Assembly (NCBI GenBank): GCA_016748015.1
Contig: JAAOMT010000282.1
Span: 228,369-292,368 of the forward strand
Origin: Geosiphon pyriformis uo1
Lineage: Eukaryota; Fungi; Glomeromycota
Direction of reading: 5' to 3'
DNA length: 64,000 nucleotides
Both the position numbers and the translations under genes were made by a program. This document shows positions 15,077-62,170 of the stretch, piece after piece; the stretch's first letter is position 1, and every line of letters starts with the position of its first letter. The notes under the pieces are model-generated. The model was not told where the DNA came from. It was given only the letters and a program-made list of their open reading frames with translations, and made no database searches.

Positions 15077-15078
15077 TT

Positions 15079-23480: not shown

Positions 23481-23483
23481 TAA

Positions 23484-24238: not shown

Positions 24239-24242
24239 ACAA

Positions 24243-25655: not shown

Positions 25656-28301
25656 CTGAAACTAAATACAAGAATTGTTTATCTGTAATAGCCTTCCTAA
25701 GCACAATGTTAATAAAGAAATGAACATTAGCATAAGCTTTTGTGACACTTAGTTTGGACAACCCTTCAGTAGACAAAAAGATATCCAGATAGTAATGTGC
25801 CTTGCTTTTCTTAGCAATTAAAATAGGCTGACCACAAATACTCAATGAAGCAACTTTAACACCCTGATTAATAGAAATAGCCACTGTCTTTTCACTGTTG
25901 ATAAAAATATTATTGATCTCAAAAAACTCACTGGCAATGTTCAATGCATACTGAGTGGAGGCTTGACAATTCCCAACCCAGATTATATTATCAACAAATG
26001 CACTAGCTGAAAAATAAGAAGTGAAATCTCCACCACTTTTAATCCTTCCAGTCTTCAAAACAAACTTAGTATCAATTTGATATCTACACAATTGTTTGTG
26101 CCTTTTGACTTTATACAAAAAAAGATCTTAAAAAATTCTTCACAAAAGGGACAAAAAGATCTCACCCTGATCCAGTCCATCATGTATCCTATAACCACCA
26201 GACAAATCAAAGTCAGTTATCACCCTATTAACTCTGTCCTTGTGAATACTGCCAAAAAACCTAATGAATCTATTACACATCTTGATATGCTGCAAACTAG
26301 TTCTCAAATGATATCACTCTACCAAATTGTAGGCTTTCTGTATATCCTGCAAAACCAACCACACTTTTCTATTCTTTTCAAGAGCATCTTCAATCACTGA
26401 CCTGACAGCAAACACTAGAGATTGTATGAACATACCCTTCAACACTGAAAAATTGTCATCTTGAAGCACATTAAACTTGCTACAAGCTACTGAAATATAA
26501 TCAGCCAGAATTTTTGAAAGAATTTTTCTGGTGGTTTCAATCAAAGCAATGGGCTGAGTGTTAGTAAGAACCCCATTCCAGTTATAAAGCTTAAGAATCA
26601 TTAAAACTCACATTCTTTTTCATAAAGCAGGCACCAAGCCAACAGCCAAACACACATTCAACAGCTTCAACAGGCACCTCAAAGCCACCTCACCACTATG
26701 TTTTCATAGCTTATTCGGAATACCAGACAAACCAGTAGTCTTGTCATCAAGCAGACTAACAACAACCAAAAGCAACTTGTCCATGCTGACAGCATATATA
26801 ACACCAGAAAAAGCATTATCCCAAACATAGTCCAAAGATGTATACTGATGGGCTCAAAGATTAAAAAGCACCAAAAGCACTGAGTGCTTCCTTGTCCATT
26901 CCTTTATGATCTTGTTCACACCCAACTTTACCTTCTCAGGTTCTAAAACCAGCTTATTGTCAACCACTAAGTGATTCAACACCACTTTGTGAAAGGGCTT
27001 GTCCAACACACTTCTGATTATACTACCTTTATTTGAACAGAATTTTTCCATGTGTCTCTCAACTGTCTTCCTAATAGAAGCTTCTTTAGCCAATCTCAAC
27101 TCAAACATCTTTGACCTCCTGTAGTCTTTGCGGACCAATGACAAATGTTTAATAATAACTTCAGACTTCACACCTGAACAGACCAAGTCATTAAAAGCAT
27201 GAGCCTTGGCATCATCCAAAGTTGACTACTTACTTACTAGACAATTGACCACAGACAAATCACCAAAGCAGTATGCTTTGACAATCTTGGCCACTAACAA
27301 TTCCAAACCACAAAACTTAAAAGAATGTTTGTTTCTCGAACACCTAAATTTGCTAAACCAATGTCTTGAAAATGTCACATCAGCAGACTCCACCACAGCT
27401 TTCTCCAAAACCACCCACATAGTATTCATATTCTCATGTGATTTAGCACCAGAGAACAACTCACCCAACAACACAAGCTTGGCTGATAAGAAATCCCTAA
27501 ACTTGGCTCATTGAGCACAGTTAGCATCCTTAATTTTGAACTTCCAATAATCCCTGTTTGCCTGCTTATGCAAGCTATTCAAATGAACATTCAAGAGTCC
27601 ACCTAAGCTAACCAACACCACTACTATTCTGTGGTTAGTGTCAAAAAAATTTAAGATTAAGGCAACTTGATGACCAGTGACAGCAAAAGATAAGTTCCCA
27701 CTAACAAAAATGTAATCAATTGCTTTTCAACCCCTCTTGAGTTGCTTCACATAGGAGAACCAACCAAACAATAACCAACAAATAAATTAATCAAACCCAA
27801 ATTCAAACAGAATTTGAAACTCACACTTCTACCAGATTCATTTTCATTAAAGTTCCCACCCAAAACAACAAAAGTGCTAGAGTTGACAGCTTTTGCAATG
27901 AGAGAGTTAACTTCAGAAGCCTGACCAAACCTGACCCCAGAAGAGGCACCTACATACAACTCCAGAAAAGTGACTGAAAGCTTGTCCTTAAACAAGAGTC
28001 GAACAGAAATAACCTGACTAGAAACTTCCTCCACCCTAGAAACATGACAAGTCAAAGAACTGTCTATAATAATAGCCACCCCAACACCAAGAAACCCCTT
28101 ATTCAAATCCGATGTAAAAACATAGACACCATCAAACCTATCAGCAATTCAAGGTTTAATGCTAGAACACGACTTGGTTTCTGTAATAAAAGACACCATA
28201 TTGCTTAACTCTTTATGTCAATAGACAACATCCCCTTGTTTAGCAGAAACAGTTAGACTACAAACATTACATATAGCAAATTTCCAAACCAGACTGCTCA
28301 T
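25656..28301 (-). pseudogene. LINE1 ORF2 (AP endonuclease + reverse transcriptase), cut by B
   Basis: Starts MSSLVWKFAICNV; fragments 27747-28106, 26854-27219, 26314-26601 and 25603-26118 are homologous to LINE2. Confidence 0.88.
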
Positions 28302-30232
28302 TGTGAAAAGGAAAGAAGCAAAGAACCTGCACCAGAACACAAAAGATCTAATCTTGCCAAAACTGTATCAACAAAAGCTTCCAAAGCCAACAATTTAGAT
28401 TCTAAACCACTCATTTTGGTAGTTAAAACTTTAAAAACACTAGAACCAATACCAGCATCTAACACATCAACATTTAAAGGAAAGGGAGCAGAAGATGCCA
28501 ACATGTGATCTAAAAGCATATTTGAGTTTGAGACTGCAATCTCAGGCACAAAGAAAGCTGATAGAAATCACAAGAGAGAGGTGCCAATAGCACCAATTCA
28601 CCACCATTCAATCTTTTTAAAATATCCAAAACCTGATCAGCCAAAAGCTCCAAAAAGCATTTCAAAGCTGCCAAATAATCATTCAAACCAAAGACATCAG
28701 AAGGAGAGGACACCAATAACAATAATTTCTCACTAGAAGACACACTAACATTAGAAGAAACCAAAAAAACCACACAAAAAAAAGATCCACCAGCAACTTG
28801 AGCCCAAGTCTTGCCACCAAAAGAACTTGGACAAGTAATAGAAGCCTGCTTTTTCTTATATATGTTGGCCAATTGCATTTGATTCTGAGAAGTAACCACT
28901 TGTTTTCCACGTCTACCAGATTTTTTATACATTGAACAGTTGACAGCAATATAACTGAGTTGTTTGCACTGAGTACAACAGATCAAGCCAAAACCAGCCC
29001 AACACAAGCCTACACCCTTGAAGACAAGAACCAAACCAACAGCAGTCAATTTGGCCACCTTATTCTCAAAACAGATTACAGTAAACATATAAACTGGGAT
29101 TGCGGCCAATAAAACAAGTCTTCTCACCATACAATTCCAACAGATCCGACAAATCATGAGCAGTTATACCAACTGGAAGAGTATAGAGTAGAGCCTAGAA
29201 CTGATCTCTTGATACCCATGATTCTTTGTCATTAACAGCAAGTACCACATACACAGAATCTTTTTTCACAAGAACAGACCACTTAGAAGCAACCAGACAT
29301 ACAACCTCAGCCGAATTGAACCCAATAGTAGCCTTTTGCCACAAACCAATTAACTGCATTCTGATAAAATTAATTTTACCAAATTTGAAAAACACCACCT
29401 CTAATGCTGATTTGGGAAGATTAACTGGAATCTTTTTAATGATCATCTTTCAATCCATATAGCTGTTTACTTTTTTGAGATCACTGTTGATAATAATTTT
29501 CTTACTAATCACCATCAATTTGGCCTTATTCAAACTAGATTCACTTGTAAAAGTAGATCGAATGACACCAGGAAATTTTGAGGGAGTTAATGCACCTCCA
29601 AAACTATCAATTCTATAGAAGATTTTTTTTACAAAAAGCAACTTATCACCATTTGTCTTTCTAGGCACAGCTGATAATTCAATATCAAGTGCAAAAGACT
29701 TTGCCAAATTAAAACTTCACTTCTTTGGGGCATGTGACTTGAGTGGCAGCAACTGATTGGATCCATTAAATGTGTGAAAAGAGAGCTTCAGCACACTATT
29801 ATTGTTACTTAAAATATTGAAAAAGGACTGCTTCATAGGATTGTCTAGAGCAAATGTATGGGTGCAAGTTTTCCTCAGCATAGTATCATCTACGTTATCA
29901 TCTTCACCAGATTCTGCATAGCTTGTCTCTTTGGCAATCATGTTCATTATATTCTCTTTACCTAAAAAACCACTTATACTGTTTACAATACTACTGACAT
30001 TGCTACCCCAGGACATTACAGGTTTGACACCAGCACCATCCAAATCTCTAAAGCTGAGAGGACCAGCAAACATATTAACCACATCACCAACAGCAGCAGG
30101 CTTCTTAGACTTCTTATAGGATGCACCATGTAAGTGTGCACCCACCAAACACTTAGGTTTAACATTAGAATAGGTCCCCAAACCCACTGAACCAGAACTT
30201 GAACCACCAGCAAAAGAGTCTACCAGTTCCAT
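28298..30232 (-). pseudogene. LINE1 ORF1 (gag-like, degenerate CCHC knuckle CTQCKQLSYIAVNC, C-terminal coiled coil)
   Basis: Collinear ORF fragments 29717-30370, 29450-29707, 29195-29446, 28510-29157 and 28298-28549. Confidence 0.75.
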
Positions 30233-30369
30233 TACAACAAAAAAGGCTGTATTGAGAGAAATAACTAAAGACAAAAAGGGGAAAAAGAAATAAAGAAAAG
30301 CTATTCTATCAAAAAGTTTTTTTTCTTTACTCTTGTTGTGGTTAGGAGATTGACAAGAAAACTTTTTCA

Positions 30370-30900
30370 TAATTATAAATAAATTATTAAATAAAATAAA
30401 TAAATAATAAATTTTTGGTATTTCTTAAAAAATATTTATAATGCCAAAAAAATAAAATTTTAGTGTTAAAAATTAAATCAAAACTAAAAAACAAAAAATT
30501 GTAATATTTAAATAATTTTAATAAAAAATTTTATAAAAAATATCTTTATTTATTTATTTTTAAATTTGAATTACAAAATTTTTTATAAATATTTTTGATA
30601 AATTCAAGTAATCTAAATATTATTTAATAATAATATAAATAATTTTAAAATAAAATTATACATTAAAAATGTTAAATTTAATTTCTGGAATAAAATACAT
30701 AATTTGCATTTGTAACAAAATAAATATTTTAAAAATTATATATAAAATAAATAATTATTCTTAATTTAAGTATAAAAATCTGATAAACAAAAACAAAGTA
30801 TTTATTTTGATTGTTTAAAAACTCCTTAAAATTATAATATTTTTATTTTTATAATTAAAAATTTAATTCTTAAATTTTATATTAAAAATAACAATTTTAC
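30370..30900. other. Extremely AT-rich low-complexity spacer
   Basis: Very few G/C and no ORFs. Confidence 0.7.
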
Positions 30901-37654: not shown

Positions 37655-40600
37655 TGATTTTTGTTGTTACTGAAATTAAGTTGAGGAATAAGATTTGTTC
37701 ATAAATCATGAATAAGTTTAATGATATCTGAGTTTTTACTTCTGATTTGGGCTCTAATCATTTGGGTTCTGGTGTTGCAATTATTATAAACAATTCTTTA
37801 GCAAGACATGTGTGTAAGGTAATAGACATTTCTGGCTAGCTTTTTTTTATCAGGTTACTTTTCAAAAATAAACTATCTGTGTCAATTTTGGGACTTTATG
37901 CTAGAGCATTTTTGGCAGTACATTTTTTTTAAATGGGTGATATTAATTCTATGATTGCAAAGGCTGTGAACAAGTTTTTTATTATTATTCTGAGAGATGA
38001 TTTTAATAAAGATAGTTCTCACAAGTGTGCTAGTTTTAGAAAGTGTCTTGATTTGAGTTTGGTTAATTCTTTGAGTGAGAGCTTTTTTGTGAAGGTGCTG
38101 ACTTGGTACAATTCTCAGGGTGTTGCTAAAACAATTGACTATTTGTTTGTTTTCTCAAACTTAGTTAATACAGTAGTTGTTTATAGTGTTGCCAATATTG
38201 GAGATTATTTTAATACTAATTACAATGCTGTTTATGTTTCTGTGAGTTTGGATGGTTTGCTGAATGTACAGCTGAACTTGCTGTGCAACCAGACTAACAA
38301 AGATCATTGGAAATTTGATATTAAGTATGCTGATAAGATAAAATAGTGTAAGTTTAGAAATGTTATGACAGCCAATACTGCTATGTTTTCAAATAAGTTT
38401 GTTTTAGCTAAGAGGCTTTCGAATTTGGATACTATGTGGGACATTGTTTGCAAAGTGATGGCTTTCTTGGCCAATAAAACTTTCAAAAAAAAATAGTTTA
38501 AAGATTATAATAGAATTTTTACCAAAGAGTCTTCCAAGTTTTATAGGCTGAAGATTTTGGTTTCAAAGATTGTTAAGACTTCTTGTGAAATAGATCTTAA
38601 CCAATTTATCTCTCTTTTGGAACACTGGATTTCTCTTGATAGTAACAAAGCTTCTATTGTTGGAGATCTTGTGAGCTTTGATGCAAATTTAGATCATGTT
38701 TGTTCTGTTTTCTATGATACAAAGAAATCTTATCATGTCTCCAAGCTTACTGAATTATTGTAAGCTAAAAAGTTAGGCATTAGATTGGCTATTGAAAAAA
38801 TGATGGAATGTTTTGTGGTCAACAAAGGCCACATGATTTATAGTATATTGGAATGCTCCTTTTGTAAAGTGGTATTGGACCATCTGATCTCTAACAGTGA
38901 TTTAATTTTAGATCCAGTTAAAGTTAAGGGAAAGATTGACAGAATTATAGAAGACTGAACAAGGAAGAGAGTTGTGCTGAAGAGTGTTCTTGAGTTGTGG
39001 CAATGTCAATAGTTGTCATTGGATTATGTTAACAATGGTGCTTTTTCAAGAGTTATGGATGCCATTGGTTATAATGAGTTGGTATGTGTGGTCAAAAATC
39101 TGCCAGATAATAAAGCTGCTGGTTTGTTTGGTATTACAAATGAACTTTGGAAACATTGCAATAGTTCTGTGTTTAGTTTGCTCTTGAATCTATCAAATCT
39201 CTGTTTGATGTATGAGTCTATATCTCATCTTGAAAGAAAGCTTGGGTGTCTATGATTCCTAAACCTTATAAATATAAGAGTGTTTTAACTAATACTAGGC
39301 TGATTGTATTAATTGAGACTGCTCATAAGATTCTTTCTAAGATACTGTTTAATAGTATTTTATTGGTATGCAGTATGTTTAATGTTCTTTATGGTGATAA
39401 CTTTTCTGTGCTAAAAAGCACTACTACTCAATCCCTTATTTTTGCTATCAGATTAATTGTTGAGGATGCTTTGGAAAAAGATTGTGAGCTTTGACTTATT
39501 TTACAGAATATGTGTAAGGCCTATAATTCTGTGAGTTAATATTACTTGTAAAATAGCTTGGTTTAGATTAAGATATGTGCACATTTTATCAGGTTTTTTG
39601 GCAGTATTCACAGTGATTGTGTTAATTGTGTTATGACTGATTTTGGTCTGATTAATAGGTACTAGGTGCATAATAGTTTTGACCAGAGTAAGATATTTTT
39701 TCTGTTATTGTAAAGAATTTTCTATGATCCCCTTTTGTGTAAGATTAAGAGACAGGAAAATTTGTGTGACTACCAGATTGACATTAAGTTTGTTGCTAAG
39801 ACTAACAGGCTAGAAAACCAAGATGGTTTGACTTTATTTTTGGTAGCTGGTGCTTTTATTAATAACACAATTTGGATAAAAAGTAGTAGAGCTGCTACTC
39901 AGTATATTTTAGATATTACTAGTGAATTTTTTAAGATAAATAACATCTCTATTAATAATAAAAAGACTGTGACCATCCCTATAAACCAGAAGGTTAGTAA
40001 TGCTTTGTTGTTAATAAGTGGTTTGCCAATTTTAGTTGCTCATAAGGGGAAGTTTTATAGGTATTTTGGTATCTATTTATTATCTAAGGGATTGTCTTTA
40101 CCAAGTTTGGCTAAGGCTTATTCAGATGTCAGATTTTTTGTTAATTTGGTTTTGAGAAAGGCTATTTCAGACAAGCAGTTCTTTTATCTGGTGTTAGCAA
40201 TATTGTAGTCCATTATTAGTTATAAGACACAGTTCAGTTTTGTTTTTAAAAGTGTATGTGTTAAGTAAAACACATTGATTAGAAAGAGTTTGAGACTTAA
40301 GACTGGGCTACCTAAAAATTTTCCCAATAAGGCTCTTTACCATCCATCTTTGTATGGCTTAAAATCTTTTGAGCAGTTGTAATCTGAGTTCAAATTGGCT
40401 TCTGTGCTGAATTTTTTAAATGCTAATGAAATTTTTAGTCATCTGTTTGATCATAAATCTTTGAACCTGCAAGTTTTGAATTAGTTATTTGTCCATCTTT
40501 TATATTATTTGGTTAGACTATGTGTTAGTTTAATCAATAATTTTTTGGCTGGTGTTGTCAAAATCTTTTTGGATTGTGATATGTCTCTTGGCAATTTTCT

Positions 40601-42469: not shown

Positions 42470-42786
42470 ACATGTTTTGGTTTAATGATTATAATTGGTT
42501 CTAAATCTTGTAGAATTTTATCTGGTTTGACTAGTATTTTCTGTACTCCTAATTGTGAAATATTATTGGTAGATGATAATACTATATGGTGATATTGTTT
42601 TAATCAATTATCATGTACTGCTTTGGTTAAGATTTTGTTGTTCAACCTTAATTTATAAGCTCCATTTCCAAGAATTTCTTCTATGTGAAATGGTCTATCC
42701 CATTTGGGATCAAATTTTCCACTCCATTGTTTTTCCACTTTGGTATAATATAGAAGTACTTTGTCTCTAATTCTGAATTTGACTAG
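42470..42786 (-). pseudogene. C-terminus of F integrase (GPF region), separated from the rest by E
   Basis: KQWSGKFDPKWDRPFHIEEILGNGAYKL. Confidence 0.85.
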
Positions 42787-43740
42787 TATTACCAGTAGAA
42801 TTTTAGCTATTAATTAGCATGAAATTATCCTTATAATTCTTATTATTAATTAACATGTTAATATCAATTCTAATTATCACTTATTATTTAATCAATTTAT
42901 CACATATCATGATTCAATTAATAATCTAATTAGTATAATAGAAAGTAAGATGATCAAATTACACAATACTCTAAACTTTGTAACATTCTAAAATTCGCCG
43001 AAATTATGAATAGTTTACCCAAATTAATCAATAGTTCAGCAAAATAACTTGTAGTTCATCAAAATGTATCTTTAGTTCACCGAAATTTGAGCAAAAAGAA
43101 AAAGTGCAAGTTCATAGACTAGTACTACAACAAGTTGTATAAAAGAAAAGCTTTTTTTCTTCAAAAAAATGTATCTTATTTTAGCTTTATCACTTAGAAC
43201 CATTCCTACACACACAAAAAAAAATAAAATAACAAATAATTCAAAAAACCAAATTCTTTAATTATTGCACTTGGAAAATTCCCAAAAACCCAACTAACAT
43301 TTTGAAATTGATTAACTACCAATTTCAGTAAACTGTTAGTGACTCCAGGCCTGGATAGAAAACGTTTCCCTTAACAGAATTCTATTTCTTTTACATTTCT
43401 TTATTTTTTTTCTTCTTTTCTTATTTACAATCATTAAGGTAGCTTACAGACAAGATTCCTATAGAAAAATTGACTTTTACAGCAAAATAACTACACATTT
43501 TTAGTGAGCTTTCAGACAAGCAATTCCTGAGAAAGAGTTGATGTTTACTACAATGTAACTACATAAAGTAACTGGTATAGAATTGGCCATTCCATTTATA
43601 AGTCCAGCAGTTCAAATTATAGGAGATAATTTGAAGATAAATTCAGTTACTGGAGGTCCAACTACTTCCTAAAAACGTGAATTTGCAGCAAATCAACATT
43701 AACAACATTCAAAAAAAATACCCAAAAATCTCTGGTAACA
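42787..43740 (+). repeat. 5' LTR of E (954 bp)
   Basis: T[A]TTACCAG...CTGGTAACA terminal inverted repeat; TATAAAA at about 43138. Confidence 0.95.
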
Positions 43741-43742
43741 TT

Positions 43743-43760
43743 TGGTGCTTTCCCACGGAA
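43743..43760 (+). promoter_or_regulatory. PBS of E (TGGTGCTTTCCCACGGAA)
   Basis: 2 nt after the LTR; differs from the A/C/F PBS. Confidence 0.85.
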
Positions 43761-43785
43761 ATAACACAATAACAACAAATTCAAA

Positions 43786-46700
43786 GTGGCAACCACACCA
43801 GACACAGCAACTCTAGAGTATTATCAGTCAATTTACACCCACTGCAAACAAAGATTTAACATCCCAGACGGAATTGAAGTTGTCAAAAAATCAGTATATC
43901 AATACATTAAAAATCATATCAACAATTATTTTTTTGGAAACTACAATATTTCAGAAGTAAAAAGCAATCTCTATAACAATTTAGTGCACTATTCAGAATT
44001 GGGAACAGAAGACCTGAACAGTGAAACACTTGTTACCTACTTCCAAGAACTTAATTTTAATATTATTGAGTATTGTGAAGAAAAATACCCAGTACAGCCC
44101 AAATACTCTTTTAACTTTGAATCAGAAACAGAAACAAGCAACAAAGGCAAACAAAAAGTGAAACAATACTCAAGAACCACTCCAAACACTCCAATACTAC
44201 TAAAGACAACTGCCAAACATTTGCAAACATCTGAACAAGAAATTAGTGTCAAATTACCACTTTTTATTACACTATTTCCAATTTTACTTGTTCAACCACA
44301 AATACCAAGTTCACTACTTAACCATTTCTCTAGACCAGAAGATTTTCAGTCACCTAAAAATTCTACTCAACAACAAAAACCAATATTAACAAGTGCCAAT
44401 ATCATTGATTACTTACAGGAAAACAAAAGTAATTATTCAGAAAGCTTGGAAAGTGAAGAAACTGATTCAGAACCAGAAGAAATCACAGGAAACAAAGAAG
44501 AAATGGCAACTGCTTACATTGCAAAAATTCCAGAATTCACTAGTGAAGACAATGATACCAGTCCTTAAAAATGGCTTGACAAAGTTCAAAAAGCAGGAGA
44601 TACAAATAGTTGGATTGCAGCAAGAATGCTCAAAGCAATTTTCTACTTTCTCCAAGGAACAGCAGGAGAATGATTTAAAAATTTAGAAGAACCATTTGAG
44701 AACTGGCAAGCATTCAAAAATGCTTTTTTACAACAATTCACTGACAACAACACCTCTATTACTCTCTGCAATCACTTTTGCAATATCAAACAAGAAACAT
44801 CTGAAACTGTTATAACCTATCTTGGAAGATTCAACAAACTTTTCAGACAAATTTGACAATTGAAAACCAATAACTACTATTCTGATGCTCAAATTCTAGA
44901 TTAGTTTATAGCAGGGTTAAAAGACAAACTGATTAAGAAAGTTTACCCACATGCTCCAGCAGACTTAGCAACTGCCATTAAACATGCAAAGAGCTATGAA
45001 ATGGCAATGGAAGAAGTAAATTATACCAAGCTTGTAAACCTTGCAATTGGAGAAACCAGCTCAGCAGCTGAAGAGAAGATAAACCAACTCACAAAAAAAG
45101 TTGAAAGCTACTTCACAAACCAACAACAACAGCAGCAACAACCACAAAGATATCAACCCCCACAATGATGCAACCAAAACAATTTTGGATCACCATCCAA
45201 CAACCAACCTCAAAATTGTCATTATTGTGGAATTTTAGGACACTGGAAACAAAATTGTAGGAAATTACAAAGAGACCAACAAAACAGGAGTAATCAATAT
45301 TACTCTTCATCACAACAATCTTATTACCAATCTCCACCACCAACCTATTATTCACCAAGACCACAAAATTAAAACAGTTACTATCTACCAGCTCCACAAC
45401 CAATGCAACAACAATATCAGCAACCCTTACTAATTTAGCCATATCAGATACCACTCACTCAACAATATCAAGTACTTACAAGAAGATTGGTTCAACATAA
45501 CCAATTTACACCCCAAAATCAATTTCAGAGTAACAACAACAGAATCAATCCAAATAACCAGTTGGTTCCCTGAAATTCGGGTCAGCAAAGACCCAATTAC
45601 TATTACACTCAATTCAGTTATCTTACAATACCAGAGGAATCGGATTTTTAACAACCTGCACTTTCTGAAGGTGAAGTTGCAGCACTTAGATCAAACTCTT
45701 CTAACAACACTATTCCACCAGCTCAAATTGCCCAAAATGCCAACCTTTCAGATATATTTCCATTCGAATTTGAAATGAATTACCATTCTTGCTTAGTAAT
45801 ACAGCAGCTAATGAACAAAGAGCTATCACTGCCATGTACACTGAAATTACAGTAAAAGAAAAACCCATCCAACTAATTCTAGACAGTGGATTAGCTGGAA
45901 GTATTATTACCTACCAGTTAATACAACAGCTTCAAAAAACTGTTGACAGACCAGCCCAAACTGTAATTGTTACAGCAGATGATATGAAAAAGACACCAGT
46001 AGGAGAAATTGACAATTTTCCATTTACTATTGATGGAATCACCATTTCAGTCAAAGTTTTAGTCATGGATGCACCCCAATACCAAGCTCTAATTAAAAAT
46101 GATTGGCTTCTTAAAACCAATGCAAACTTAGATTGGGAAACTCAAGAACTAAAAATCTCATACCAAGGACAATACACCATAGTATTTGCTATTTGTGGTA
46201 CTTTCAACAAATAATCAGAAAAAGCCCCAGTATTTGAATTTGAAGAGGAGAAGGAAATGCCACTCACTGAAACCTACATGGCTCTTAGATCAACATCCAA
46301 TTGGGCTGAAGAAACAGAATAAGAGATTTTTGAGGAATCAAGAGGATAAAAGAAAGTTAGATATTCTACACCAGAACCATGAAAACAACCACTCTACATT
46401 CCACTTAAATGCAAAGATTGCAACAAGAAACTTTCATCAATGGGAGCATGTATTTTCTCAGAAGAGGAATATGAAACTTGTACCTGTTACTTTTGCAAAG
46501 CATGTTATAGAGAACGATTTGGATCTCCAAAAAGAAGTGGAAAATAGGACAACACACTTTGTCTTACATGTGGAGATATGTTACCAGAAGAATACAACTA
46601 GATTGATGTTGTAATAAGAGGAGGAGTATGCGATCAAACCTGTCAATATGCTCTATTAATTTCGGAAAAAGTAAGAAGAAGAACACCATTTGATGCAGCA

Positions 46701-49700
46701 TATAATAGTGCTCTCAATAAACTTTACCACTACCCTTATAATGCTGAAATAATTTTTGACCTAGCAATAGCATTGATCAATAAAGCCACCCAAAAAGATG
46801 TCCACCAAATGAAAAAAGCTGAATACATTGAGTATATCATGGAATTAGCTGGATTTGATTATAAAAATAAAGTAGAAACCTACCACCAAATTGCAAGCCA
46901 CACATACCCAACTTAAAAAGCTCAAATTCAATGATTAGAGCAAATGAACATTCAATTATGTGAAGAATACATCATGCCTTGTAATGACAAATGGTGTCCA
47001 GAATGCTATGCTATTAGCATTCCTCTGCCAAAGGAAAATGATGAAAATGAAATCGAATTTGGAGTATCTGAACTGGTAGAAGAACTACCAACCACCTCCA
47101 TCTATCTTCTTGAAAAGCAACCACCTCTATAACTTAAATATTTTGACAACCATGGCCAAGGAATCAAACCAGAAAAAGCACACAAAATTGATGCTGGATA
47201 TAATCTAAGATACCCGGAAAAAGATACTTTGGTTTTTCAACCAAAGTCTTTGACAAAAATCAATCTCAAAATTGCTCTTAAAATTCCACTTGGAGCAATG
47301 GTTCAAATTGCATCCAGATCATCATTGGTAAGCAAAGAAATCAATATTAAAGGAGGAGTTATAGATGCAGAATATACTGGAGACATTACCATCATGTTAC
47401 AAAATGAAACAGACAAACTATTTAGGATTAAACATGTTAAAAAAATTGCCCAAGCAATTTACCTACCTCTAATTAACATTTTGGGATTACAATCAGTTAA
47501 AAACAGAGAACAATTAGGAAAAAGTGAAAGAGGAACTCAAGGTTTTGGTTCAACTGGACAATTTACAGTTCTAGTAAACATAGCTCTCAATACACAGAAT
47601 GAAATTTACCAGATTTTTCAACTTCCCCAACCAATTATCATTTCACCTTTTGGTGAATATTACGAAATTCACACTTTCTCAAAACCCACCACTATCCAAC
47701 AAATCTTTGAATCCAATGAACAAATCTGTTTGAAGCATGAAATCTCAATCCCAAACGTTTATATTCCCAAAAGAATGAAAAAATTTTGAGTTATATTCTA
47801 CAACCCCAATAATTACCTTATTGTTTTATTAAACAAATTAGAAATTGGAATCATACACAGCAATATCTTTTAAAATGAAAACCCTTAAATTGTTTCTAAT
47901 TTCATTAAAATTGTAAGACACACTCTACTCTCAAATCCAAATATTATTCTACCACTAAAAACTACCACCTTTTGGAAGAAAAACTCTCTTAAATCAACAT
48001 GGGTCTCTTAGAACCTTAACAACAAAGACAATTGAAACAATTGATAGCTAAATTTGCAGATATATTTGCAAAAGACAATAATGACCTGGAAAAACTGATA
48101 TTGTTTAACATCAGATCCATACAAGAGATGCTCTACCAAAATGTTAACAAGCTTATAGAGTGCCACTTGCCAGCCATTAATTCATTAGAGAAGAAGTCCA
48201 AAGAATGCTCAATAATGGATTAATTCAACCATCAAGAAGTCTTTGGGCCTTACCAATAGTCCTTGTTAAAAAAAAAAATGGAAAAATCAGATTTTGTGTT
48301 GACTATTGCCAACTAAACAGTGTGATAATTGGAGATGCTTACCCTCTTCCAAGAATTGATGACATGTTAGATGCTCTAGGAAAAGCCAAGTTCTTCTCAA
48401 CTTTGAACTTAGAAAGTAGATACTGGCAAGTTGAAGTGGACCCAAAAGACCGACCCAAAACAGCATTTACTACTCAAAAAGGAAACTATGAGTTCAATGT
48501 TATGCTTTTTGGACTCTACAATGCACCAGCAATATTTCAGTGACTTATAGATGTTGTATATGAAGAACTTTTGTGGCAATTAGTAGTTGTCTATCTTGAT
48601 AACACTAATGTATACTCACCAAGCTTTGAAGCCTATCTGATTTATCTGCAAGAAGTTTTTTAACGATTATGGAAAGCAGGATTAAAGTTAAACATTGAGA
48701 AATGTTACTTTAGAAAAACAAGCTTGATCTTTCTTGGACACATAGTTAGTAAAGATAGAGTCAAACCAAATTCAGGAACAATCAGTGCTGTCAAAAACTT
48801 TCAAACCTCCAGAAATATCACAGAACTATGAGAATTTGTAGGATTAGCCTCTTACTATCAAAAATTCATAAAAAAATTCTCGGAAATTGCCAAACCACTC
48901 AATTATCTTACCAACAAAAACGTGCCATACAAATGGACTGAAGAACAACAAAAAGCTTTTGAAACTTTCAAAACAAAATTGACAACAGCCCTAGTTCTTG
49001 CTTACCCAGACTTCAACAAACAGTTCCAATTAGTCACTGATGCTTCACACATAGCATTTGGTGCCATTCTATCACAATTGGATGAAAATGGCCAGGAGCA
49101 AGTTATTGCCTATGCCAGTAAAACACTCAAGCCAACAGAATTCAAATATGGCTCAACTGAATTAGAAGCTGCTACCATCATCTGGGCTCTCAAACACTTT
49201 CAACAATACCTAAAGAATAAAAAAAAATTTGACATAATAACTGACAATATTGGCCTTAAATGGCTCAATAAAAAGAAAACAGAACAAAATGCTAAACAGT
49301 CTTGATAGAATGACTTCCTAGCAGACTACAGATATATTATACACCACAAACCAGGAAAACTACATACCAATGTTGATAGCCTTTCAAGAATGAGACAAGA
49401 TTAATACCAACAACAATTCCACCACAACTTATTAACCTACCAACAAAATAACCAAATAAAAATGGATCCCAGAAATTATAGCAATCTTAAAAATCATTTG
49501 GAGACCTTTATCATGCCAAAAAACTGGTCTCCAAGTAAAAAACATTGTTTACAACACCAATAAAAACAATATTTTATACACCATAACAGAATCTATTACA
49601 AAAATCATAAAAACCCAAACCAACTACTCAGACTAATACAAGAAAATGAAAAAGAAACAATTCTATACAACATGCACACAGATCCTTCTTTAGCACATTT

Positions 49701-50847
49701 GGGAAGAGATGGAACAATTCAAAGAACTTTTGAACATTATTTTTGGCCTCAAATGCAAAAAAACATTCGATGATATATAGAATCTTGTGATAGTTGTTAA
49801 AGAAGAGAAGGAACTCACCCCACAGAATCTTTAAATCCAATTAAAGTTGGACAACCTTTTGACAGAGTTGGAATTGATTTAGTCGGACCATTACCTATCA
49901 CAACCCAAGGAAATTGTTATATTGCAGTTGCAGTAAATAATCTCACCAAATGGTCTAAAGCTAAAGTTATTCAAAGAGCAGATGCAAAATCAGTAGCAAA
50001 TTTCATCTATGAAGACATTATTTGTAGACATAGATGCCCAATTGAACTTTTATTTGATCAAAGAACACATTTTGTGAACAACTTGATACATGAAATTTGT
50101 GAACAATTCAATGTCAAAAGACCTCTATCATCAGCTTATCACCTTTAAACAAATAGACTTGTAAAACGTTTCAACAGAACATTGTGTAAATCTCTAGCCA
50201 AAGTCTTAATAGACTTTGAGCAGGAATGGGATATCTTTATTCCATCAGTGTTACTAGCATACAGAACACTAAAATAAAATACTATGAAACACACACTATT
50301 TGATTTAACTTATGAAAAGACAGCAACATTACCAATTAATTTCACAGTGGAAACATACCCTGTGCAACCAATTAATGAAGAAAACTTTCAAGAAACACTC
50401 CAAAGAAGGGCTTATACTCTCCTTAGTACACTGGAATGAAAAAGAAGGATAGCAGCAACTTATATTGAATATTCTCAAACTCAACAAAAAAAAAGACATG
50501 ATAACAAATTACTACCCATAATCAACAAATTTAAAATTGGAAATAAAGTTTTCTTACACAGAACTAAGACTGAAAAACAATGGAATAAGAAATTTGAAAA
50601 CAAATAGGATGGACCATTTTATATTCACAAAATTCTAAGCAATAGATCATATAAGTCAAGACTTAATAACAAAGTACTAACAAAAGTTGCACATGGAGAT
50701 AGATTGAAACACTATTATTCCAAAAACAATTCTGAACTATTAATTCTACAAATTGGTACCCATTCCTTTTTAATTAATTCTGAAGATATTCTCCGAAATT
50801 TAGAACCAATAATTATAATAGAACAACAACCAAACTTAAACACTTAA
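43786..50847 (+). pseudogene. gag-pol: gag-pol of E (CCHC CHYCGILGHWKQNC, protease LILDSG, Cys module, dUTPase about 47170-47556, RT, RNase H, integrase)
   Basis: DAGYNL, ASRSSL, GGVIDAEYTGDI, SERGTQGFGSTG; RFCVDY, YPLPRIDDML, YLDN; VTDAS, ELEAA; GPFYI. Confidence 0.94.
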
Positions 50848-50999
50848 TTCAACATAATTTTACAATAATCTTTTAATAATACACAAAAGACAAAAATAAT
50901 AAATAATTACAAAACACCCAAAACCCAAAAACAAATAAAACCCCAGACCCAAAAATATTTTTTTTTATTCTTTTTTTTCATTAATTAGTTAATTTTATC

Positions 51000-51707
51000 A
51001 TGATTATTTCCCGAAATATTCAACAAATATCCTAAAAATTAATGTTAGTCTTGAAAACACTTCCTGACTTATCCATAACGATTAATGGAAGTCAAATTAA
51101 TTACATTCAGAAAGAAACCACAGCCCCAGTAATAAATAATTCTCAGAACTACCACCTCTATAGAAAAAAAACAAGAAGTTACTCTGAGAATAAGTTACCA
51201 GAACTTTTGAAGCAGGCACTAAAAGAAAACTTTTTATCTGCCCCTATTGACATTCCACCAAATGCCACAATACAACAAAAACTTCTACTATTACTTAATG
51301 AACAGAACAATGAACATACCCTCATATTTAAATATTTCTGCATTGGAAAAACATTTTATGAACGAAAACTAGAACTTGAAACAACAAATACCACCCCAGA
51401 AGCCATACAAAAACACATTCACAATGAATTTAAGACAGCAGCTGGATCAACAAACACTTGCTACAAACTTAGAACAGCTCTTAAACTCTATAACTTGTTT
51501 AATACTTGTAAAAACGTCCTACAAAGCCCAACACTTCAACCATTAAAAATACAATATATTGGAAAGCTCACAGAACTGAAATTTCAACAATTTTCAGAGC
51601 AAATCACTTCAATCATCTTAGACCACTATCTTGACATTACAGATAGTGCTTGGACTTTGACAGAGCTCAGTCTTGAGAAGGAGGTTATGTTACCAATAGA
51701 ATTTTAG
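51000..51707 (+). pseudogene. ORF3 of E (ATG at 51000, one TAA at 51033, then 221 open codons from 51042 running through the PPT into the LTR)
   Basis: ORF-track 51042-51707; homologous to D ORF3 and distantly to B/C/F ORF3. Confidence 0.8.
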
Positions 51708-52600
51708 CTATTAATTAGCATGAAATTATCCTTATAATTCCTATTATTAATTAATATGTTAATATCAATTCAAATTATCACTTATTATTTAATCAATTTA
51801 TCACATATCACGATTCAATTAATAATTCAATTAGTACAACAAAAAGTAAGATGATCAAATTACACAATACCCTGGACTTTGTAACATTCTAAAATTCGCC
51901 GAAATTTACAGAAATTTGCCGAAATTTATAAAAATTTGCTGAAATTATAAATAGTTCACCCAAATTAATCAATAGTTTAGTGAAATAACTTGTAGTTTAT
52001 CAAAATGTATCTTTAGTTCACCGAAATTTGAGCAAAGAGAAAAAGTACAAGTTCATAGACTAGTACTACAACAAGTTGTATAAAAGAAAAGCTTTTTTTC
52101 TTCAAAAAACCAAATTCTTTAATTATTGCACTTGGAAAATTCCCAAAAACCCAACTAACATTTTGAAATTGATTAGCTACCAATTTCAGTAAACTGTTAG
52201 TGACTCCAGGCCTGGATAGAAAACATTTCTCTTGACAGAATTCTATTTCTTTTACATTTTTTTATTTTTTTCTTCTTTTCTTATTTACAATTATTAGAGT
52301 AGTTTACAAATGAGATTCCTGTAAAAGAGTTGACTTTCATAGCAAAGTAATTACATATTTTTAGTAAGCTTTCAGACAAGCAATTTCTGAGAAAGAGTTG
52401 ACATTTACTACAATATAACTATATAAAGTAACTGGCATGGAATTGGTCATTCCACTTATAAGTCCAGCAGTTCAAATTATAAAAGATAATTTGAAGATAA
52501 ATTCAGTTACTGGAGGTCCAACTACTTTCTAAAAACGTGAATTCACAGCAAATTAACATTAACAACATTCAAGAAAAGAGACCAAAAACCTTCAGTAATA
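51688..52600 (+). repeat. 3' LTR of E (913 bp; type III 10-bp array AAATTCGCCG about 51891-51950)
   Basis: Direct repeat of 42787-43740, preceded by PPT gagaaggagg. Confidence 0.95.
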
Positions 52601-55600
52601 TTGATTTATCTGGTAGTTAGTTATCATGTCTTTTTTTTTGTTTTTCTTGTGACTTTTAGATGTTATTAGCTGCTCTTCATCATTTGTTTTCTAAAATTTC
52701 TATCAAATCATATGTTTTTCTTAGCAATGTTTCTTGAAAATTGTCTTCAATTATTGGTTCTGTTGGATAAGTATTGGCTTTTATCTCAACTGGTAATATT
52801 GCTGTTCTACTATATACTAATTCAAATAGTGTTGCTTGTGTAGTGTTTTGTTTTATTGTTTGATAAGCAAATAATACTAATAATATGAACAAATTCCATT
52901 CATTCTAGTTTTTTTAGCTGATCTTGGTTATTGCTTCATACAGTATTCTGTTAAATCTTTCAACTAATCTATTTGTTTATGGATGGTATAGTAATGATAA
53001 TGGTCTTTTTATCCCAAATCTTTGACTTAATTCTGCCAATGTTCTATTTACAAAGTGAGTTTTTTGATCTGATAATAGTTTTTTTGGACATCTATGTCAA
53101 CAAATTAAATCTTGATGAACAAATTTGGCAAAGAATTCTGTATCTGTTTTTTGAATGGTTTTTGTTTCTGGCCATTTAGTGAGATAATCCATGGCTACTG
53201 CAATATATCTGTTGCCTCTGCTAGTAATTGTTAATGGTTCAACTAAATCAATTCCAATGTAATCAAATGGTTGTCCCACTTTGATTGGTTTTAATGGTTC
53301 ACTGGGTTTTGTTCCTCTTCTGCTCTAACAAACATCACAATTTTGAACATATTGAATAATATCTAAATACATTGATGGCCAATAGTATCTTTTTCTGATT
53401 CTTTCTATTGTTGCTTTTTTATGAAAATGTCTTGCTGTTGGGTCTAAGTGCATGTTAAACAATATTGTTTCTTTTTCTGGTTCTGTAATTACTCTGGTTG
53501 GTTGATCTGAATTTCTTTTGTTTTTCAGTAAAGTTTTTTTTGATGATTAATAAAATATTTTGATTGTTGTTTTATGTTGTTTTGTTCTTTTTGAGATAAT
53601 TTCTCCTTGAACAATTGGGTATTTATATAATGTTGGAGTTGTTAGTATTTTTGTATATTTATCTTTTGTTATATTTTTAGGTTAAAATGTTTTTAGATTT
53701 GTCTTATTCGTGACAAACCATCAGCATTTCCATTTTCTTTTCCTTTTTTGTAGTGTACTGTATAATTAAATAGTGAAAGTTCTATTTTCTATCTAATATA
53801 GCAATTATCTCCAAATTTTTGTTTCTGAATTAAAGTTAATCCTTTATAATTAGTGTATATCTCAAACTTTTGGCTCAAGTATTTTTTCTATTTCATGACT
53901 GCCCAATAAATTGTTAAGTGTTTTAATGCTAGTATTCTATAGTTTTTTTCAGCTGGACTCAAACTTTGGCTGGCATATGCTACTGGATGTTCTCTTCTAT
54001 CTGGTTTTTTTTGTAATAGTACTGCTCTCAATGCTTGGTTTAATGCATTAATGATAATGATGAATAGTTTACTGTGATTTGAATACATCAACACTGGAGC
54101 TTGGATAAGCTTTTTTTTCAATATGTTAAAAGCTTCTTGCTGGTTTTTTGTCTATTCATATTTGGTGGTTTTTAATTGGAGCTGGTGTAATGACTACACT
54201 ATTTTTGAAAAGTCTTTGATAAAGCAGCAGTAATATCTAGCAAATCTTAAAAATGCTTTTAGTTTTGTCAAGTTGGTTGGTATTGGAAAGTTTTTGACTA
54301 CCTCAATTTTGTCTGGATCCATTTTAATATGGTCTTTGCTTACAACATGTCCCAAAAACTTGAGTTTGGTCTTTTCAAAGAAACATTTGTTTGCATTTAA
54401 TTTCAATTCTGCTTGTCTGAGTCTTTTAAATACTTGTTGGAAATGATGTAGATGATCATCAAATGTTTTTGAGAACACATTGGTGTTATCCAAGTATACA
54501 ACTACTAATTTCCATAACAGTCCAATATATACAATTTCTATAAGCCTTTAAAATGTGGCAAAAGCATTCATCAAGCCAAATGGCATTACTTCAAATTCAA
54601 AATTTTTTTCTCAAATTGTAAAAGCTGTTTTCTTTTTATCTTCTGGTTTCATGGCTACTTGCCAATAACTACTGTTCAAATTTAAAGTTGAGAACTATTT
54701 TTTTCCTTCAAAAGCATCAAACAGTTCCTGGATCTTTGAAGTTGGGTAGCTGTTTCTCTTGGTTACTCTATTCAGTTTTTGGTAATTTACACAAAAACGG
54801 ATTTTTCTATTTTTTTTATAGACTAGTACCACTGGTGATGACTATAGGCTCATTGATGATTGAATTAACCCATTGTTAAACATTTAATTGATTTTTTGAT
54901 AAATGATCTTATGGCTGGCTGGTGGTACTCTGTATGCTCTTTGTTTGATTGGTATTGTATCTTCAGTCTTAATCTGGTGCTGGATTATGTCAGTTCTGCT
55001 AAATTCATTTTTGCTGGCAAAGATGTTATTAAAATTGTTGAGTAATATCTTAAGTTGCATTAATTGAAATGGGTCTAGATTTTCCAAGTTCATCTGTTTC
55101 AATTGTTTTGGTTGGAGCAGATAACATTTTTCTTATCTGTATATTGTTTGAGATGTGATATTTACATATCTACACAGTTGTGAAAAGTCTGGAATGAGGT
55201 TTGGCAGTTGGTCTTCAATTTCAGTGGTTAGATATCTGATGTTGGTTCCTTCTGGTATCTTGATAATATCTCTCATATTGTTGTAAATGAGAATTTTGAT
55301 GTGATTGTGGTTCTTGGCTAGTATGTGTAGATTAACTAATCCAATCTTTTCTGATTCACAAAGTGTTGCTTCTGCCTCGAAAATCTGAACCTGATCCTTC
55401 ATTTTTCTCTCTATGACTATTATGTACTGATTATATAGTGAAATGGAGATTGATTGACAAATGGAGATAATTTCTCTCTTGTCAATAACCTTTTCTTTTG
55501 CCATATTGACTGGTACATTTATTCTATTTGTGGATTTAAATTCCTGTATCCTTTTAGCTGTAATCTCTAATTCTTTCTTGTTTTCTACTAATACTAATTG

Positions 55601-58600: not shown

Positions 58601-59844
58601 CAAGTAAGTGATAACTGTTTCAGTTTCTCTCTGTTTGATTGTGTTGAAAACATTGGCTAGGCAATTAATACTGTTATTATTACTAAAATATTTCAAAAAT
58701 GCAGTTTAAATTCCTGAAATGTTTGACGTTTGGCAGCTAAACTTTGATATCACAAGTTGGCAGTATCTTAGAGAAAATAAGAAATCACTTGAAAAGCTCT
58801 GTCATTATTCTATCTATTGGCTGTGATAGCTTTTTTCACATCATTAAGTCATACTTGAGCATTATCTTTCTTACTGGTAAATTTTTCAATTTTGGTAATA
58901 GGTGCATATGCTATTGGTACTAATAGTAGTTGTTGTTGCAGTTGTGATTGTTGTTGAAGTGGTTGCTGCAATTGTTGTTGAGGTACTAATTGTGACTGTT
59001 GCTGTTGCTATTTGTCAATTGGTGGAGCTGGTAGTGGATTAATTATAATTACCGAAGATAAGTTTTCTTGAATGATAATATTAGGGTTTTAATTATTCTG
59101 ATTTTTTGAAGTTTGATTAACCAGAGTTTCAATTTCTGAATTTTCTAAGATTGGGTTTTGTTTGCTAATTTCCTGATCATTACCTTTTTTTTTCTCTAAG
59201 TCAGTTATTTCTCAAGAACTAATGGCTCCAAAATCTGGTTGTGATAGGGGTGATTGAATTTCTGATAGCATTGGGGATCACAATTTAAATCTCTTAAAAT
59301 AATTGTCATATGTTTCTAATAACTCTGCTTTCTTTTGTTTACTTTGAAATAGAATTCTGTTTAGTGGTGCTGTTTTGCTTGCTGTAACCATACTTATTAT
59401 ATTGATAGTACTTCCAAGTGTGTGATGATATGATGGATTAACAGATGAATTAAATCTTTGTTTTTTCCAAGTAGATAATTGGATTTGCTTTGGTGTTTCT
59501 ACTGGTGTTTGTAATCTTCCTTTTCCTTTGTCAGCAAAAGTGATAGGAAATCTTTGCTTGGTGTATTTTTCAATTTTTCTGTTTATTTCTGTGATTAAAG
59601 ATGCAAATAAGTAGTTTTGTGGAAGGATGGTGCTTTGGAGTAGTTCACTAAAGAAATTGTTGAAGACAAATTTTGGATCTTCTTGGCCTCCCAAATAATA
59701 TACAATTTTTTTATTAACATAGCAATTGAAAGCTGATTCTGTTGGCCAACTGTTATTTGTTAATTCAAGATGAGTGTGATAATATTGAAATAAGAATTTT
59801 GTAAATCCCAAATGGTTTGTTCTTGTTTCTTCAGATTCTGTTAC
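52601..59844 (-). pseudogene. gag-pol: gag-pol of F (dUTPase within ORF 55133-56335)
   Basis: Fragments 59278-59811, 58481-58696, 57073-57600, 55133-56335, 54194-54493 and 53097-53279 are collinear with B. Confidence 0.93.
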
Positions 59845-59910: not shown

Positions 59911-60723
59911 TATTACAAATGATTATTTGGGGTCTCAAAACAAATAACAAACCCATAACTTAGTGCTTAACAGTTAATTTTGTTAGTAATATTGGTAAGT
60001 TGTTTGGTTTGAAAATTTTTGTAATTTGATAATTTTGATGGAGTTCTTTGTATAATGGACAGAAATGTAATTGGTTGTTTTATCCAAAACTGCAGTTTTG
60101 TCAATTTTTTTCTTAGCATGATAACTGGTAATTTTCTTGGTAAGATATCCTCAATTCTGAGTGTCTATCCTTATTCCTGGGTCTTTTACCAGTGTTATAT
60201 CCTGACATCAGTACCTCTGCACATAAATTCTTTTAATTAAGTTAATAAAACAAAAAAAATAACAAAAGAAAATAAAAGAAAATAAAAAAAATAAGCCAAG
60301 ACAATAATTTTTAGTATTCTGTTAATAGCCATAATCAAAAGCTATTGTTTCAGCATGATTAAGTATTTAAGACTATCAACATGAAGTGTTGACAGTGGAG
60401 AGTAAATTAAGATATCAAATAATTATTTATTAATATTTGTGAATTGGAAGGCTGTTTAGATCAAATTTAAACTGAGAGGTCTGTTTTTTCTACTTTTAAT
60501 ACTACTACTATATATACATAATTGAGATTCCTCAATTTCTTAATTCTTCCTATCAGGAATTCTGGAATTTTTGGAATCCTGCAATTCTTTGTATAAGAAT
60601 CCTGAAATTTCTGGAATCTTACAATTTCTTTGAGAGGAATTCTGAAATTCTACATTTTACTATACTTACTTCTGATTGGCTAATTTATATGGGTAATATA
60701 CTTCCTAGATTTTATGAGTAACA
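59911..60723 (-). repeat. 5' LTR of F (813 bp)
   Basis: TGTTACTCA...TGTAATA on the minus strand. Confidence 0.93.
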
Positions 60724-62170
60724 ATATTATTAGTGTTTACATAGATGGATCTTTAAAAAATTTGGGTTTTTGTGAAATGAAGTGTGGAACAGCTGCATAT
60801 TTCTCTAATTTGGATTTGAGCATTGGCATTAGAATTGGTAAGTTGGTATCTTCCACTATGGCAGAATTGCAGGTGATTGTTCTGGCTTTGGAATGTGTTC
60901 CTCTTAACAGTTTTATTGTGGTTTATTTGGACAGTCAAGCTGCCTTGGATGTTTGTGTTGTTGAATTGGCTTTGACTTCTTCAAACTTTTGCAATCATTG
61001 CTGGATGGTGTGGTGTGGTATTGTTAATTTTATTAAAAAAAAAAGACTTGATGTTTTCTGGTGCAAGATTAAAAAACATTTAGGTGTTTTGAATAATAAG
61101 TGTGCTGATGTGTTAGCTGGTTTGGCTACTGGTTTTAATTTGGTGCTTTCTGTTTTGATAGAGAAAAAGTTCATTAAGACTGGTGGGGTGGCAGTGTCTA
61201 GTAACATTTGACATATTGCTTATAAAATTTTCAGGTTTGTAAATCATGCTTATTGGGAAGTTGAATCTGGTTCTAATGTTGTTAACAAAAACTTAGTCAG
61301 TGATGTGGATTGAATTTGCACTACTTTAGTTTGGCATTTCAACTCACACATGACAACTGGATTCATTTGTAAGTCTATGACTAATTTGTATTTATATTTT
61401 TTAAAGGTGCTCTATTGCCATCTGCCAGTTGCTGTGTAAAAGCATTTGTATAATAGGGTCTATCTGAATGTTTTGTGTTTTCATTATGGAAAGATAGAGA
61501 GTTCCAATTATTTATTTGTGTGTTTGTTTAACTCTGGTGTCCATAAAGACCTGTTTGTATTCTATCTGGCTAATTGGCATGTTGTGTTTGGTTTGAGTTT
61601 CTCTTTGTTTCGGGTCTTGCAAGTGCTTTCTTTGTGTGTTTCTAATAATGTATTATATACTACTATAAGCAAGAGCTTTTTGTTCAAGAAGTGGTTTCTA
61701 AAGGCCATGTCTATTTTTGATAATGCTAAGTTTGTGGAGAATTTTATTGTTAATTTTGTTCAAAGCTTAAATGCTGCTTACTATGCTAAAATTTGATTGG
61801 TTAAGGTTAAATATAGGGCTTTTATAAAAAAAAGTGGTTTGATTTTACATAATATTTCTACTTTTCCTATAATCTATGATTTGTTGTGTTTGTTTTTGGC
61901 TAAAATTGTAAAGTTACTTGGAGTTGCTAAGGCTCTTGGTGTCTGTTTTGGTTTTTACAAACATTGCTGCTTTTTTGTAGGCATTAATAGTATAATGTCT
62001 GTTCTGTTAAATTTATAGTGTTGCTTTGATCAGCCCAAATGGCTGGTCATATGTAAAAAGTACATGATTTGCATCTAGTTTAGATCACTTAGTTCAATAT
62101 ATTGTGTTAGATAGCATTTGGGTCTTAGTCATTAAATATTATAAAAAAAATAGAATATAAAAATAAAAAT
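60724..62170 (+). mobile_element. LINE2 right arm: RNase H, degenerate C-terminal zinc finger, 3' UTR and A-rich tail
   Basis: VYIDGS, SSTMAELQ, YLDSQAAL, KKHLGVLNNKCAD; stop at 62018; A-rich from about 62140. Confidence 0.88.

Follow-up and report, generated by a model that had tools for sequence, protein, structure and literature searches.

A probable GUG-started extension of Gag in two Ty3/gypsy retrotransposon families of the fungus Geosiphon pyriformis

The Gag protein of Ty3/gypsy elements normally starts at an AUG near the capsid domain. Long and short capsid-protein forms with a common C-terminus are known from Ty1 (p22) and AAV (VP2/VP3). In AAV, a DNA virus with an unrelated capsid, an ACG start is combined with leaky scanning, and Ty1 p22 is made from an internal transcript and AUG codons. 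Both resemble the Gag proposed here in that one capsid protein takes two forms. MLV glyco-Gag (gPr80gag) is translated from the RNA that also gives the AUG-started Gag, but it begins at a non-AUG codon lying further upstream in the gag frame (PMC5778647). Ribosome density in the MLV extension is 6.7% of that in gag, a GUG start has also been seen, and gammaretroviruses generally have no AUG in that extension (PMC5778647, PMC3042739). Mutagenesis showed that PEG10 is started both at its AUG and at a CUG that precedes it in frame by 34 codons (PMC2800197), and a conserved upstream CTG start completes a domain in CCDC8 (PMC10516033). GUG ranks second to CUG among near-cognate starts (PMC5666671), and in cpc-1 of Neurospora crassa an uninterrupted frame of more than 700 nt precedes the main AUG and is translated, with conserved near-cognate starts (PMC5487733). 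Among the papers listed by our literature search, which covered mainly the main text of open-access articles, none dealt with a mobile LTR retrotransposon whose gag starts at a codon other than AUG. LTR elements make up 41.2% of the Geosiphon genome, and the term "start codon" is absent from the accessible part of the paper reporting this (PMC11952901).

The elements described here resemble MLV in that the proposed long Gag would start at a non-AUG codon in good context that lies upstream of the AUG and in its frame. The MLV extension, however, comprises 88 residues and carries a signal peptide, and glyco-Gag is a glycosylated protein of the cell surface, whereas the extension of Geosiphon comprises 239-320 residues, has a soluble, predicted four-helix domain and belongs to a fungal retrotransposon with no sequence link to glyco-Gag found. 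A prediction made earlier from the DNA letters of this locus (the original prediction) had drawn the analogy with glyco-Gag; it applies to the start mechanism only, as the Geosiphon extension lacks a signal peptide. PEG10 and CCDC8 are likewise Ty3/gypsy-derived and have an in-frame upstream non-AUG start, but they are fixed mammalian host genes with a CUG and extensions of 34-70 residues, in contrast to the GUG, the mobile multi-copy elements and the whole domain plus linker of Geosiphon. The cpc-1 case indicates that fungal ribosomes are capable of such extensions, although cpc-1 encodes a transcription factor of the host, has more than one start codon and two AUG uORFs, and shows no homology to the elements studied here.

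We analysed a 64,000-nucleotide stretch of Geosiphon pyriformis DNA (the window; assembly GCA_016748015.1, contig JAAOMT010000282.1, positions 228,369 to 292,368). Self-comparison and Pfam matches placed five decayed, dUTPase-bearing Ty3/gypsy elements in the window. They belong to two families, with elements A, B, C and F in family 2 and element E in the second (family E), and capsid identity between the families is 34-38%. The elements have direct LTRs with a primer site (putative, by position) just inside the 5' LTR, a capsid of the Retrotrans_gag/Ty3_capsid type, and, in this order, protease, RT, RNase H and integrase. Pfam matches located all four of these except RT, which was read from a YLDD motif at 20524-21069. 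PF03732 matched B at 7486-7983 (E value 3.9e-11) and is also precomputed on family-E gene models, and the Retrotrans_gag and Ty3_capsid matches lie on the part of B equivalent to the E capsid region. The dUTPase lies between protease and RT in both families (47133-47789, 10231-11136, and 18574-19437). With dUTPase-bearing Metaviridae the Geosiphon elements share the LTRs, primer site, Retrotrans_gag/Ty3_capsid, aspartic protease, dUTPase, and RT-RH-IN order; they differ from the usual Metaviridae, with an AUG close to the capsid domain, in their putative GTG-started extension. The features are listed in Table 1.

Table 1. Positions, within the window, of the elements and of the features around the proposed Gag starts.
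Feature	Position	Strand	Comment
Element A	1-6181	-	Self-comparison, Pfam
Element B	6412-15076		Self-comparison, Pfam
Element C	14395-24239		Shares an LTR with B
Element F		-	Split by E
Element E	42787-52600		Self-comparison, Pfam
5' LTR of E	42787-43740	+	About 950 bp
3' LTR of E	51688-52600		
TATA-like box TATAAAA in E LTR	43138-43144	+	In all three family-E LTRs; putative transcription start downstream
Primer-binding-site-like stretch	43743-43758	+	Starts TGG, 2 nt past LTR end; by position only
A/C-rich leader	43759-43785	+	Three different frames into GTG among copies
Conserved GTG of E	43786-43788	+	Context AAA-GTG-G; proposed long-Gag start
Predicted four-helix domain of E	43786-44085	+	About 100 residues; homologous between families
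Basic KGKxK motif, then P/T/S/Q-rich and acidic linker	44086-44502	+	In frame, Met-free
E capsid ATG	44503-44505	+	First ATG past LTR, at capsid domain start (MATAY); proposed core-Gag start
E capsid, CCHC knuckle, Q-rich region	44503-45750	+	Broken by stop codons in the E copy
Element B, GTG to capsid ATG	6439-7341	+	GTG 6439; 300-codon extension; capsid ATG 7339
Element C, GTG to capsid ATG	15139-16101	+	GTG 15139; 320-codon extension; capsid ATG 16099
Element A, GTG to capsid ATG	4491-5494	-	GTG 5494; extension with one frameshift; capsid ATG 4493
Element F, GTA to capsid start	58912-59844	-	GTA 59844; 310-codon extension; ATA at capsid start

Every copy in the window was decayed. The mode of decay was C>T and G>A, with a CpG observed/expected ratio of 0.15-0.17; the two LTRs of E matched in 804 of 873 aligned columns, and transitions accounted for 66 of the 69 differences. 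Elements B and C share the LTR at 14395-15074 in a tandem LTR-internal-LTR-internal-LTR array. Element E was inserted in F, and its flanks, CTAG (42783-42786) and TTGA (52601-52604), could both be derived from one CpG-centred 4-bp target duplication through C>T and G>A decay. Open frames without a Pfam match lie in an env-like position between integrase and 3' LTR in E (51036-51707) and C (22928-23425). Decayed frames of another type of repeated element were present at 25603-30424, 39036-40208, and 60684-61211; 25666-26755 matched 39099-40187 in inverted orientation, and the two frames of this type that were tested gave no Pfam match. Two sources gave evidence at the level of copies: contigs from a single DNA run, and 351 Geosiphon gene models, in which ATG starts are over-represented and some introns are predicted. 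The extension of E was identical to one Geosiphon gene model over 91% of its length.

In both families, the gag frame reached 239-320 codons upstream of the capsid ATG and began at a GTG. As the original prediction had stated, this codon reads AAA-GTG-GCA in E, C, and A (minus strand), ACA-GTG-ACA in B and, with GTA in its place, ACA-GTA-ACA in F (minus strand), at the positions given in Table 1. The distance to the capsid codon was 717 nt in E, 900 nt in B, 960 nt in C, and 930 nt in F, all multiples of three, and 1001 nt, with one frameshift, in A. Codon 1 was Val in 195 of the 240 gene models scored (102/129 in family E and 93/111 in family 2), the other 110 of 350 models not covering the site. 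Met was found in 20 family-E and 12 family-2 models, of which 12 and 11, respectively (23 of 32), had it as the start of the model, where annotation favours a Met. Ile occurred in 2 and Leu in 9 of the 240 models. That Met is the main replacement and Ile is rare would fit a GTG rather than any Val codon. The bias of decay runs opposite to the change of an ATG into GTG, and ATG is the minority at a site where Val predominates and the family majority is GTG, so that a decayed ATG was rejected as the origin of this codon, in agreement with the original prediction.

The context of the codon was strong. The residue before Val was K, T, or N, which places an A at -3, in 105/110 family-E and 94/95 family-2 models (Lys in 182 of 205), and the residue after it came from a G-starting codon, giving G at +4, in 125/129 and 95/110 models; the A at -3 is partly expected because the leader is A-rich. 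In a contig pile-up, position 43786 was not among the 40 best-supported of 182 contig differences, and a narrow second pass (321 contigs, 2% threshold) listed no G>A there, as against 3.3% at 43788, although the absence of a row in such a pile-up does not prove sameness. A stable hairpin after the GTG was sought in five copies, and none was found (z -0.8 to +1.2). The codon is thus near-cognate, in frame, conserved, in strong context, and upstream of the AUG, as would be expected of a non-AUG extended Gag.

To avoid inflation by CpG decay, pN/pS was calculated from transversions only. The comparisons were made within family 2, family E having one copy in the window, and the C-F and B-F rows for the capsid were left unused because of the frameshift in F. 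For the extension, pN/pS was 0.41 between B and C (P = 4e-5), compared with 0.91 and 1.08 in the other frames, and 0.43 between C and F (P = 1e-4). For the N-domain, it was 0.34 between A and B (P = 0.002) and 0.53, which was not significant (P = 0.1), between A and C; the capsid gave 0.11 between B and C. This purifying selection in the gag frame, obtained from the kind of dN/dS check that the original prediction had suggested, indicates that translation of the extension went on during the divergence of the subfamilies, each of which had the GTG. It also largely refutes the view that the extension is a non-coding leader or a dead relic, with the GTG and the lack of ATG being accidents of composition and CpG decay. 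The G-poor nature of the region (91 of 765 bases) and the depletion of antisense ATG described below would favour that view, but lengths that are multiples of three in four of five copies and a confident four-helix model in both families also speak against it, and it can hardly be correct.

Element E had no ATG in 43741-44502, compared with 9.6 expected from base composition, close to the ten or so of the original prediction, and 8.1 expected from dinucleotide shuffles (P <= 0.0005). No other ATG-free run in the window, whichever the strand, was as long as that at 43553-44503 (950 nt); the second longest was 505 nt. In family 2, 4 ATGs were observed against 9.5 expected in B, 5 against 9.4 in C, 6 against 14.1 in A, and 5 against 13.0 in F. 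Antisense ATG was also depleted (observed versus expected, E 7 versus 15.4, B 11 versus 23.9, C 17 versus 24.2, A 21 versus 28.7, and F 11 versus 25.5), and to a like degree, so that the raw family-2 count is weak evidence and the dinucleotide shuffle is a poor null; codon-order shuffles were used instead. With these, out-of-frame ATG was the most depleted of 51 triplets in E (0 versus 6.1 expected, P = 0.0013) and was also low in B (3 versus 7.4, P = 0.036) and F (3 versus 7.6, P = 0.025); in C the difference was not significant (3 versus 6.1, P = 0.11). No depletion was seen in E, B, and C in the 238 codons past the capsid ATG (10 versus 9.4, 16 versus 9.5, and 12 versus 8.5, respectively). 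The result is tempered by CAT, the antisense of ATG, which was low in the same shuffles in E (4 versus 10.5) and B (7 versus 13.4). ATA, the decay product of ATG, was likewise depleted in E, B, and C, indicating that decay did not erase ATGs. The expected depletion was therefore significant in E, where it ended at the capsid ATG, and weaker in family 2.

The gene models gave a similar picture. Met was the commonest residue in none of the extension columns (238 in family E and 319 in family 2), and its top share in any family-E column was 2.7%. Residue pairs that can hide an ATG numbered 3 versus 9.9 expected in E (P = 0.003) and 6 versus 10.6 in family 2 (P = 0.054), and were at normal frequency in both capsids. 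Three ATG sites recurred within the family-2 extension. Two of them read ACA in one copy; the third, which is out of frame, was ATG in all four window copies, and its gene models had Gly (22) or Ser (9) among 37, a CpG-like pattern found in no window copy. Most stray ATGs are thus probably decayed ACG, as judged from these mixtures of codons, but this origin, which had been proposed for all of those in B and C, is not supported by the window copies at the third site, and this internal ATG, as well as one in the leader, may be genuine. None of the leader, LTR, or internal ATGs gives the extension an in-frame start. Taken together, the extension is open, coding, and AUG-depleted, with the evidence for selection coming from family 2 and the depletion being clearest in E.

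No conserved in-frame upstream ATG was found in three family-E and six family-2 LTRs, as the original prediction required. Downstream of the TATA-like box, six of the seven family-E LTR ATG sites were ATG in one of three copies only, and five of these six read ACA in another copy; the seventh, at 43169 (31 nt past the TATA-like box), was ATG in both LTRs covering it. An LTR frame starting "MELAIP..." was considered as the start and rejected, since the site reads ATA, ATG, and ACA across three LTRs and hence was ACG. ATG sites in family-2 LTRs were mostly mixed among copies. The one at 14577 was ATG in 6/6 LTRs and has a T both at -3 and at +4; this ATG (14577-14600, and in five other family-2 LTRs) is in weak context within a short inverted repeat, and the 7-codon upstream ORF that it opens may be regulatory.

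The leader enters the Val in different frames. The three frames were represented by 11, 7, and 6 of 66 family-E models (42 unclassed) and by 37, 9, and 7 of 65 family-2 models (12 unclassed). In the window copies, too, the distance from a common upstream YAG to codon 1 varied, being 29 nt in A, 30 nt in C, and 34 nt in F. The frame class was the same as that of the nearest neighbour in 36 of 53 models, indicating that some, but not all, leader indels were inherited. These breaks bear on the possibility that another non-AUG event, such as initiation at an upstream LTR ACG, internal entry of ribosomes, or their reinitiation once a short ORF in the leader has been read, produces the extension and that the GTG is a mere conserved Val. 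Several LTR sites appear to have been ACG before decay (mixtures of ATG, ACA, ATA, and ACG), some family-E models have a gag frame that can be followed without a stop back across the primer site and into the LTR, and site 15031 is in frame with gag in C-type copies. However, the upstream frame is not kept in either family, conservation between families begins at the Val, and the predominance of Met over Ile (2/240) among codon-1 replacements fits a GTG, all of which make such an event distinctly improbable.

The main rival is splicing, in which an LTR exon ending in A would be joined at AG|TG to create an AUG; the spliced RNA would encode the long Gag and the unspliced RNA the core Gag, so that two isoforms would still be made. 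An AUG is created by splicing in the env of Drosophila gypsy. At the present locus, the base before the GTG was A in all five window copies, and gene predictors had apparently used the junction, with Leu at codon 1 in 9/240 models and several internal Met after unrelated sequence. The LTRs contain U-rich tracts and donor-like GT sites. A GTAAAC, a long U-rich tract, and an AG in the E LTR (43328-43438) may represent a short leader intron or a 3'-end signal, and a similar U-rich tract follows a TACTAAC-like motif in family-2 LTRs. Splice acceptors in fungi are mostly YAG, whereas the acceptor here would be AAG in E, A, C, and most models. Moreover, only 0-4 of the 28 nt before it are T, and neither a branch site nor a pyrimidine tract is present there, the common YAG that lies 29, 30, and 34 nt upstream of codon 1 in A, C, and F would be a better acceptor, and no donor conserved across LTRs was found. 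We therefore consider splicing unlikely.

AlphaFold2 predicted four helices at matching positions in the N-domains of both families, followed by disorder (pLDDT 78.8 and 71.4). The helices span residues 7-23, 31-50, 55-69, and 79-100 in one N-domain and 5-25, 33-50, 57-71, and 80-98 in the other. Although the two N-domains share only 14-21% identity, their profiles aligned with a probability of 97.2, to which capsid columns add, with both Val in register, and conservation between families started at the Val. The helical domain of about 100 residues, alignable between families and followed by a linker, that the original prediction had described was thereby recovered. The extension gave no Pfam match and no usable Atlas match, and a Foldseek search with the N-domain models against PDB and BFVD returned nothing at E <= 0.001. 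The best VIA-align matches among those listed had Z 6.7 (rmsd 3.5, 99 aligned) and Z 6.9 (rmsd 3.3, 103 aligned), which is helical-bundle background; no retroviral matrix protein and no Z >= 8 was among the matches listed. No signal peptide was found in the extension, and the top 19-residue hydropathy of the N-domain was 0.16-0.71. A hydropathy peak of 1.73 occurred at residue 153 of E, where other copies carry Ser or Pro. A conserved stop between N-domain and capsid was ruled out, E being open from the GTG through the capsid ATG.

Met stood at the capsid boundary in 122/141 family-E and 32/41 family-2 matches. The conservation of the capsid ATG claimed in the original prediction held at 7339 (B) and 16099 (C) but not in F, whose capsid codon is ATA, and Ile replaced the capsid Met in 9/43 family-2 models. 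The context of the capsid ATG was weak in family 2, with C at -3 in A, B, and C. The gag frame runs on towards the protease region in E, B, and C, so that either start would yield a polyprotein. These features are in part compatible with GUG being the sole functional start of one long polyprotein cut by the protease, the capsid Met being an ordinary residue or a relic: the Met is missing in 19/141 and 9/41 matches and is ATA in F, its context is weak in family 2, and processing is available with Gag and the protease region in one frame. A sole GUG start would, however, leave unexplained the scarcity of ATG, in and out of frame, exactly up to the capsid ATG, as well as the shared position of the first Met, which marks this boundary in both families although their capsid identity is 34-38%. 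We regard it as quite unlikely.

Leaky scanning most simply accounts for the selection on the extension, for the strong context of the GTG with which it begins, and for a scarcity of ATG that ends at the capsid ATG. One RNA would then yield two forms of Gag, a minor long form from the GUG and a core form from the AUG. We assign this reading a probability of about 0.65 on the strength of the sequence comparisons. Ribosomes would scan from the cap through the AUG-poor leader; some would initiate at the GUG and produce the minor long Gag, and most would scan past it to the capsid AUG and produce the major core Gag, with the ratio of the two presumably set by the weakness of the GUG. What the long form is predicted to add is a soluble four-helix domain, tethered by a flexible linker of 140-220 residues. 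Most likely, a few copies of it would be co-assembled into each particle, where the domain would have a targeting or accessory role. The two-isoform Gag of the original prediction is thus largely supported by the selection, the upstream frame breaks, and the matching helices, while initiation at the GUG and the two products themselves are what we infer from them.

Relatives outside Geosiphon were not found among the matches listed (the best 120 of 223, 53 of 53, and the best 120 of 443). All ten divergent representative matches that were looked up came from Geosiphon; the listing of representatives covered the best 150 of 274. Metagenome locus scans with N-domain and capsid returned nothing, nor did viral contig scans with capsid, integrase, and RT. 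Public Geosiphon gene models splice the extension onto unrelated upstream exons to gain an ATG. Because the extension itself has no ATG available, many Geosiphon "hypothetical proteins" are copies of it with unrelated upstream exons.

Non-AUG extended Gag is already known from gammaretroviruses and from domesticated mammalian genes; its probable occurrence in a mobile LTR retrotransposon would be new as far as our literature search reached, and the domain involved had no family or fold match in the databases searched. We tentatively suggest that this Ty3/gypsy lineage might use the weak GUG as a dosing device, by which most capsid subunits would come from the AUG and a few would carry a so far undescribed four-helix domain on a long tether. 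Such a domain could direct particles to membranes, the nucleus, or integration sites, or it could protect them against silencing by the host, possibly as an independent fungal counterpart of retroviral matrix or glyco-Gag kept in two families. If the leaky-scanning reading is true, the strategy would be more widespread than thought, and retrotransposon particles could bear an optional N-terminal domain at a set ratio.
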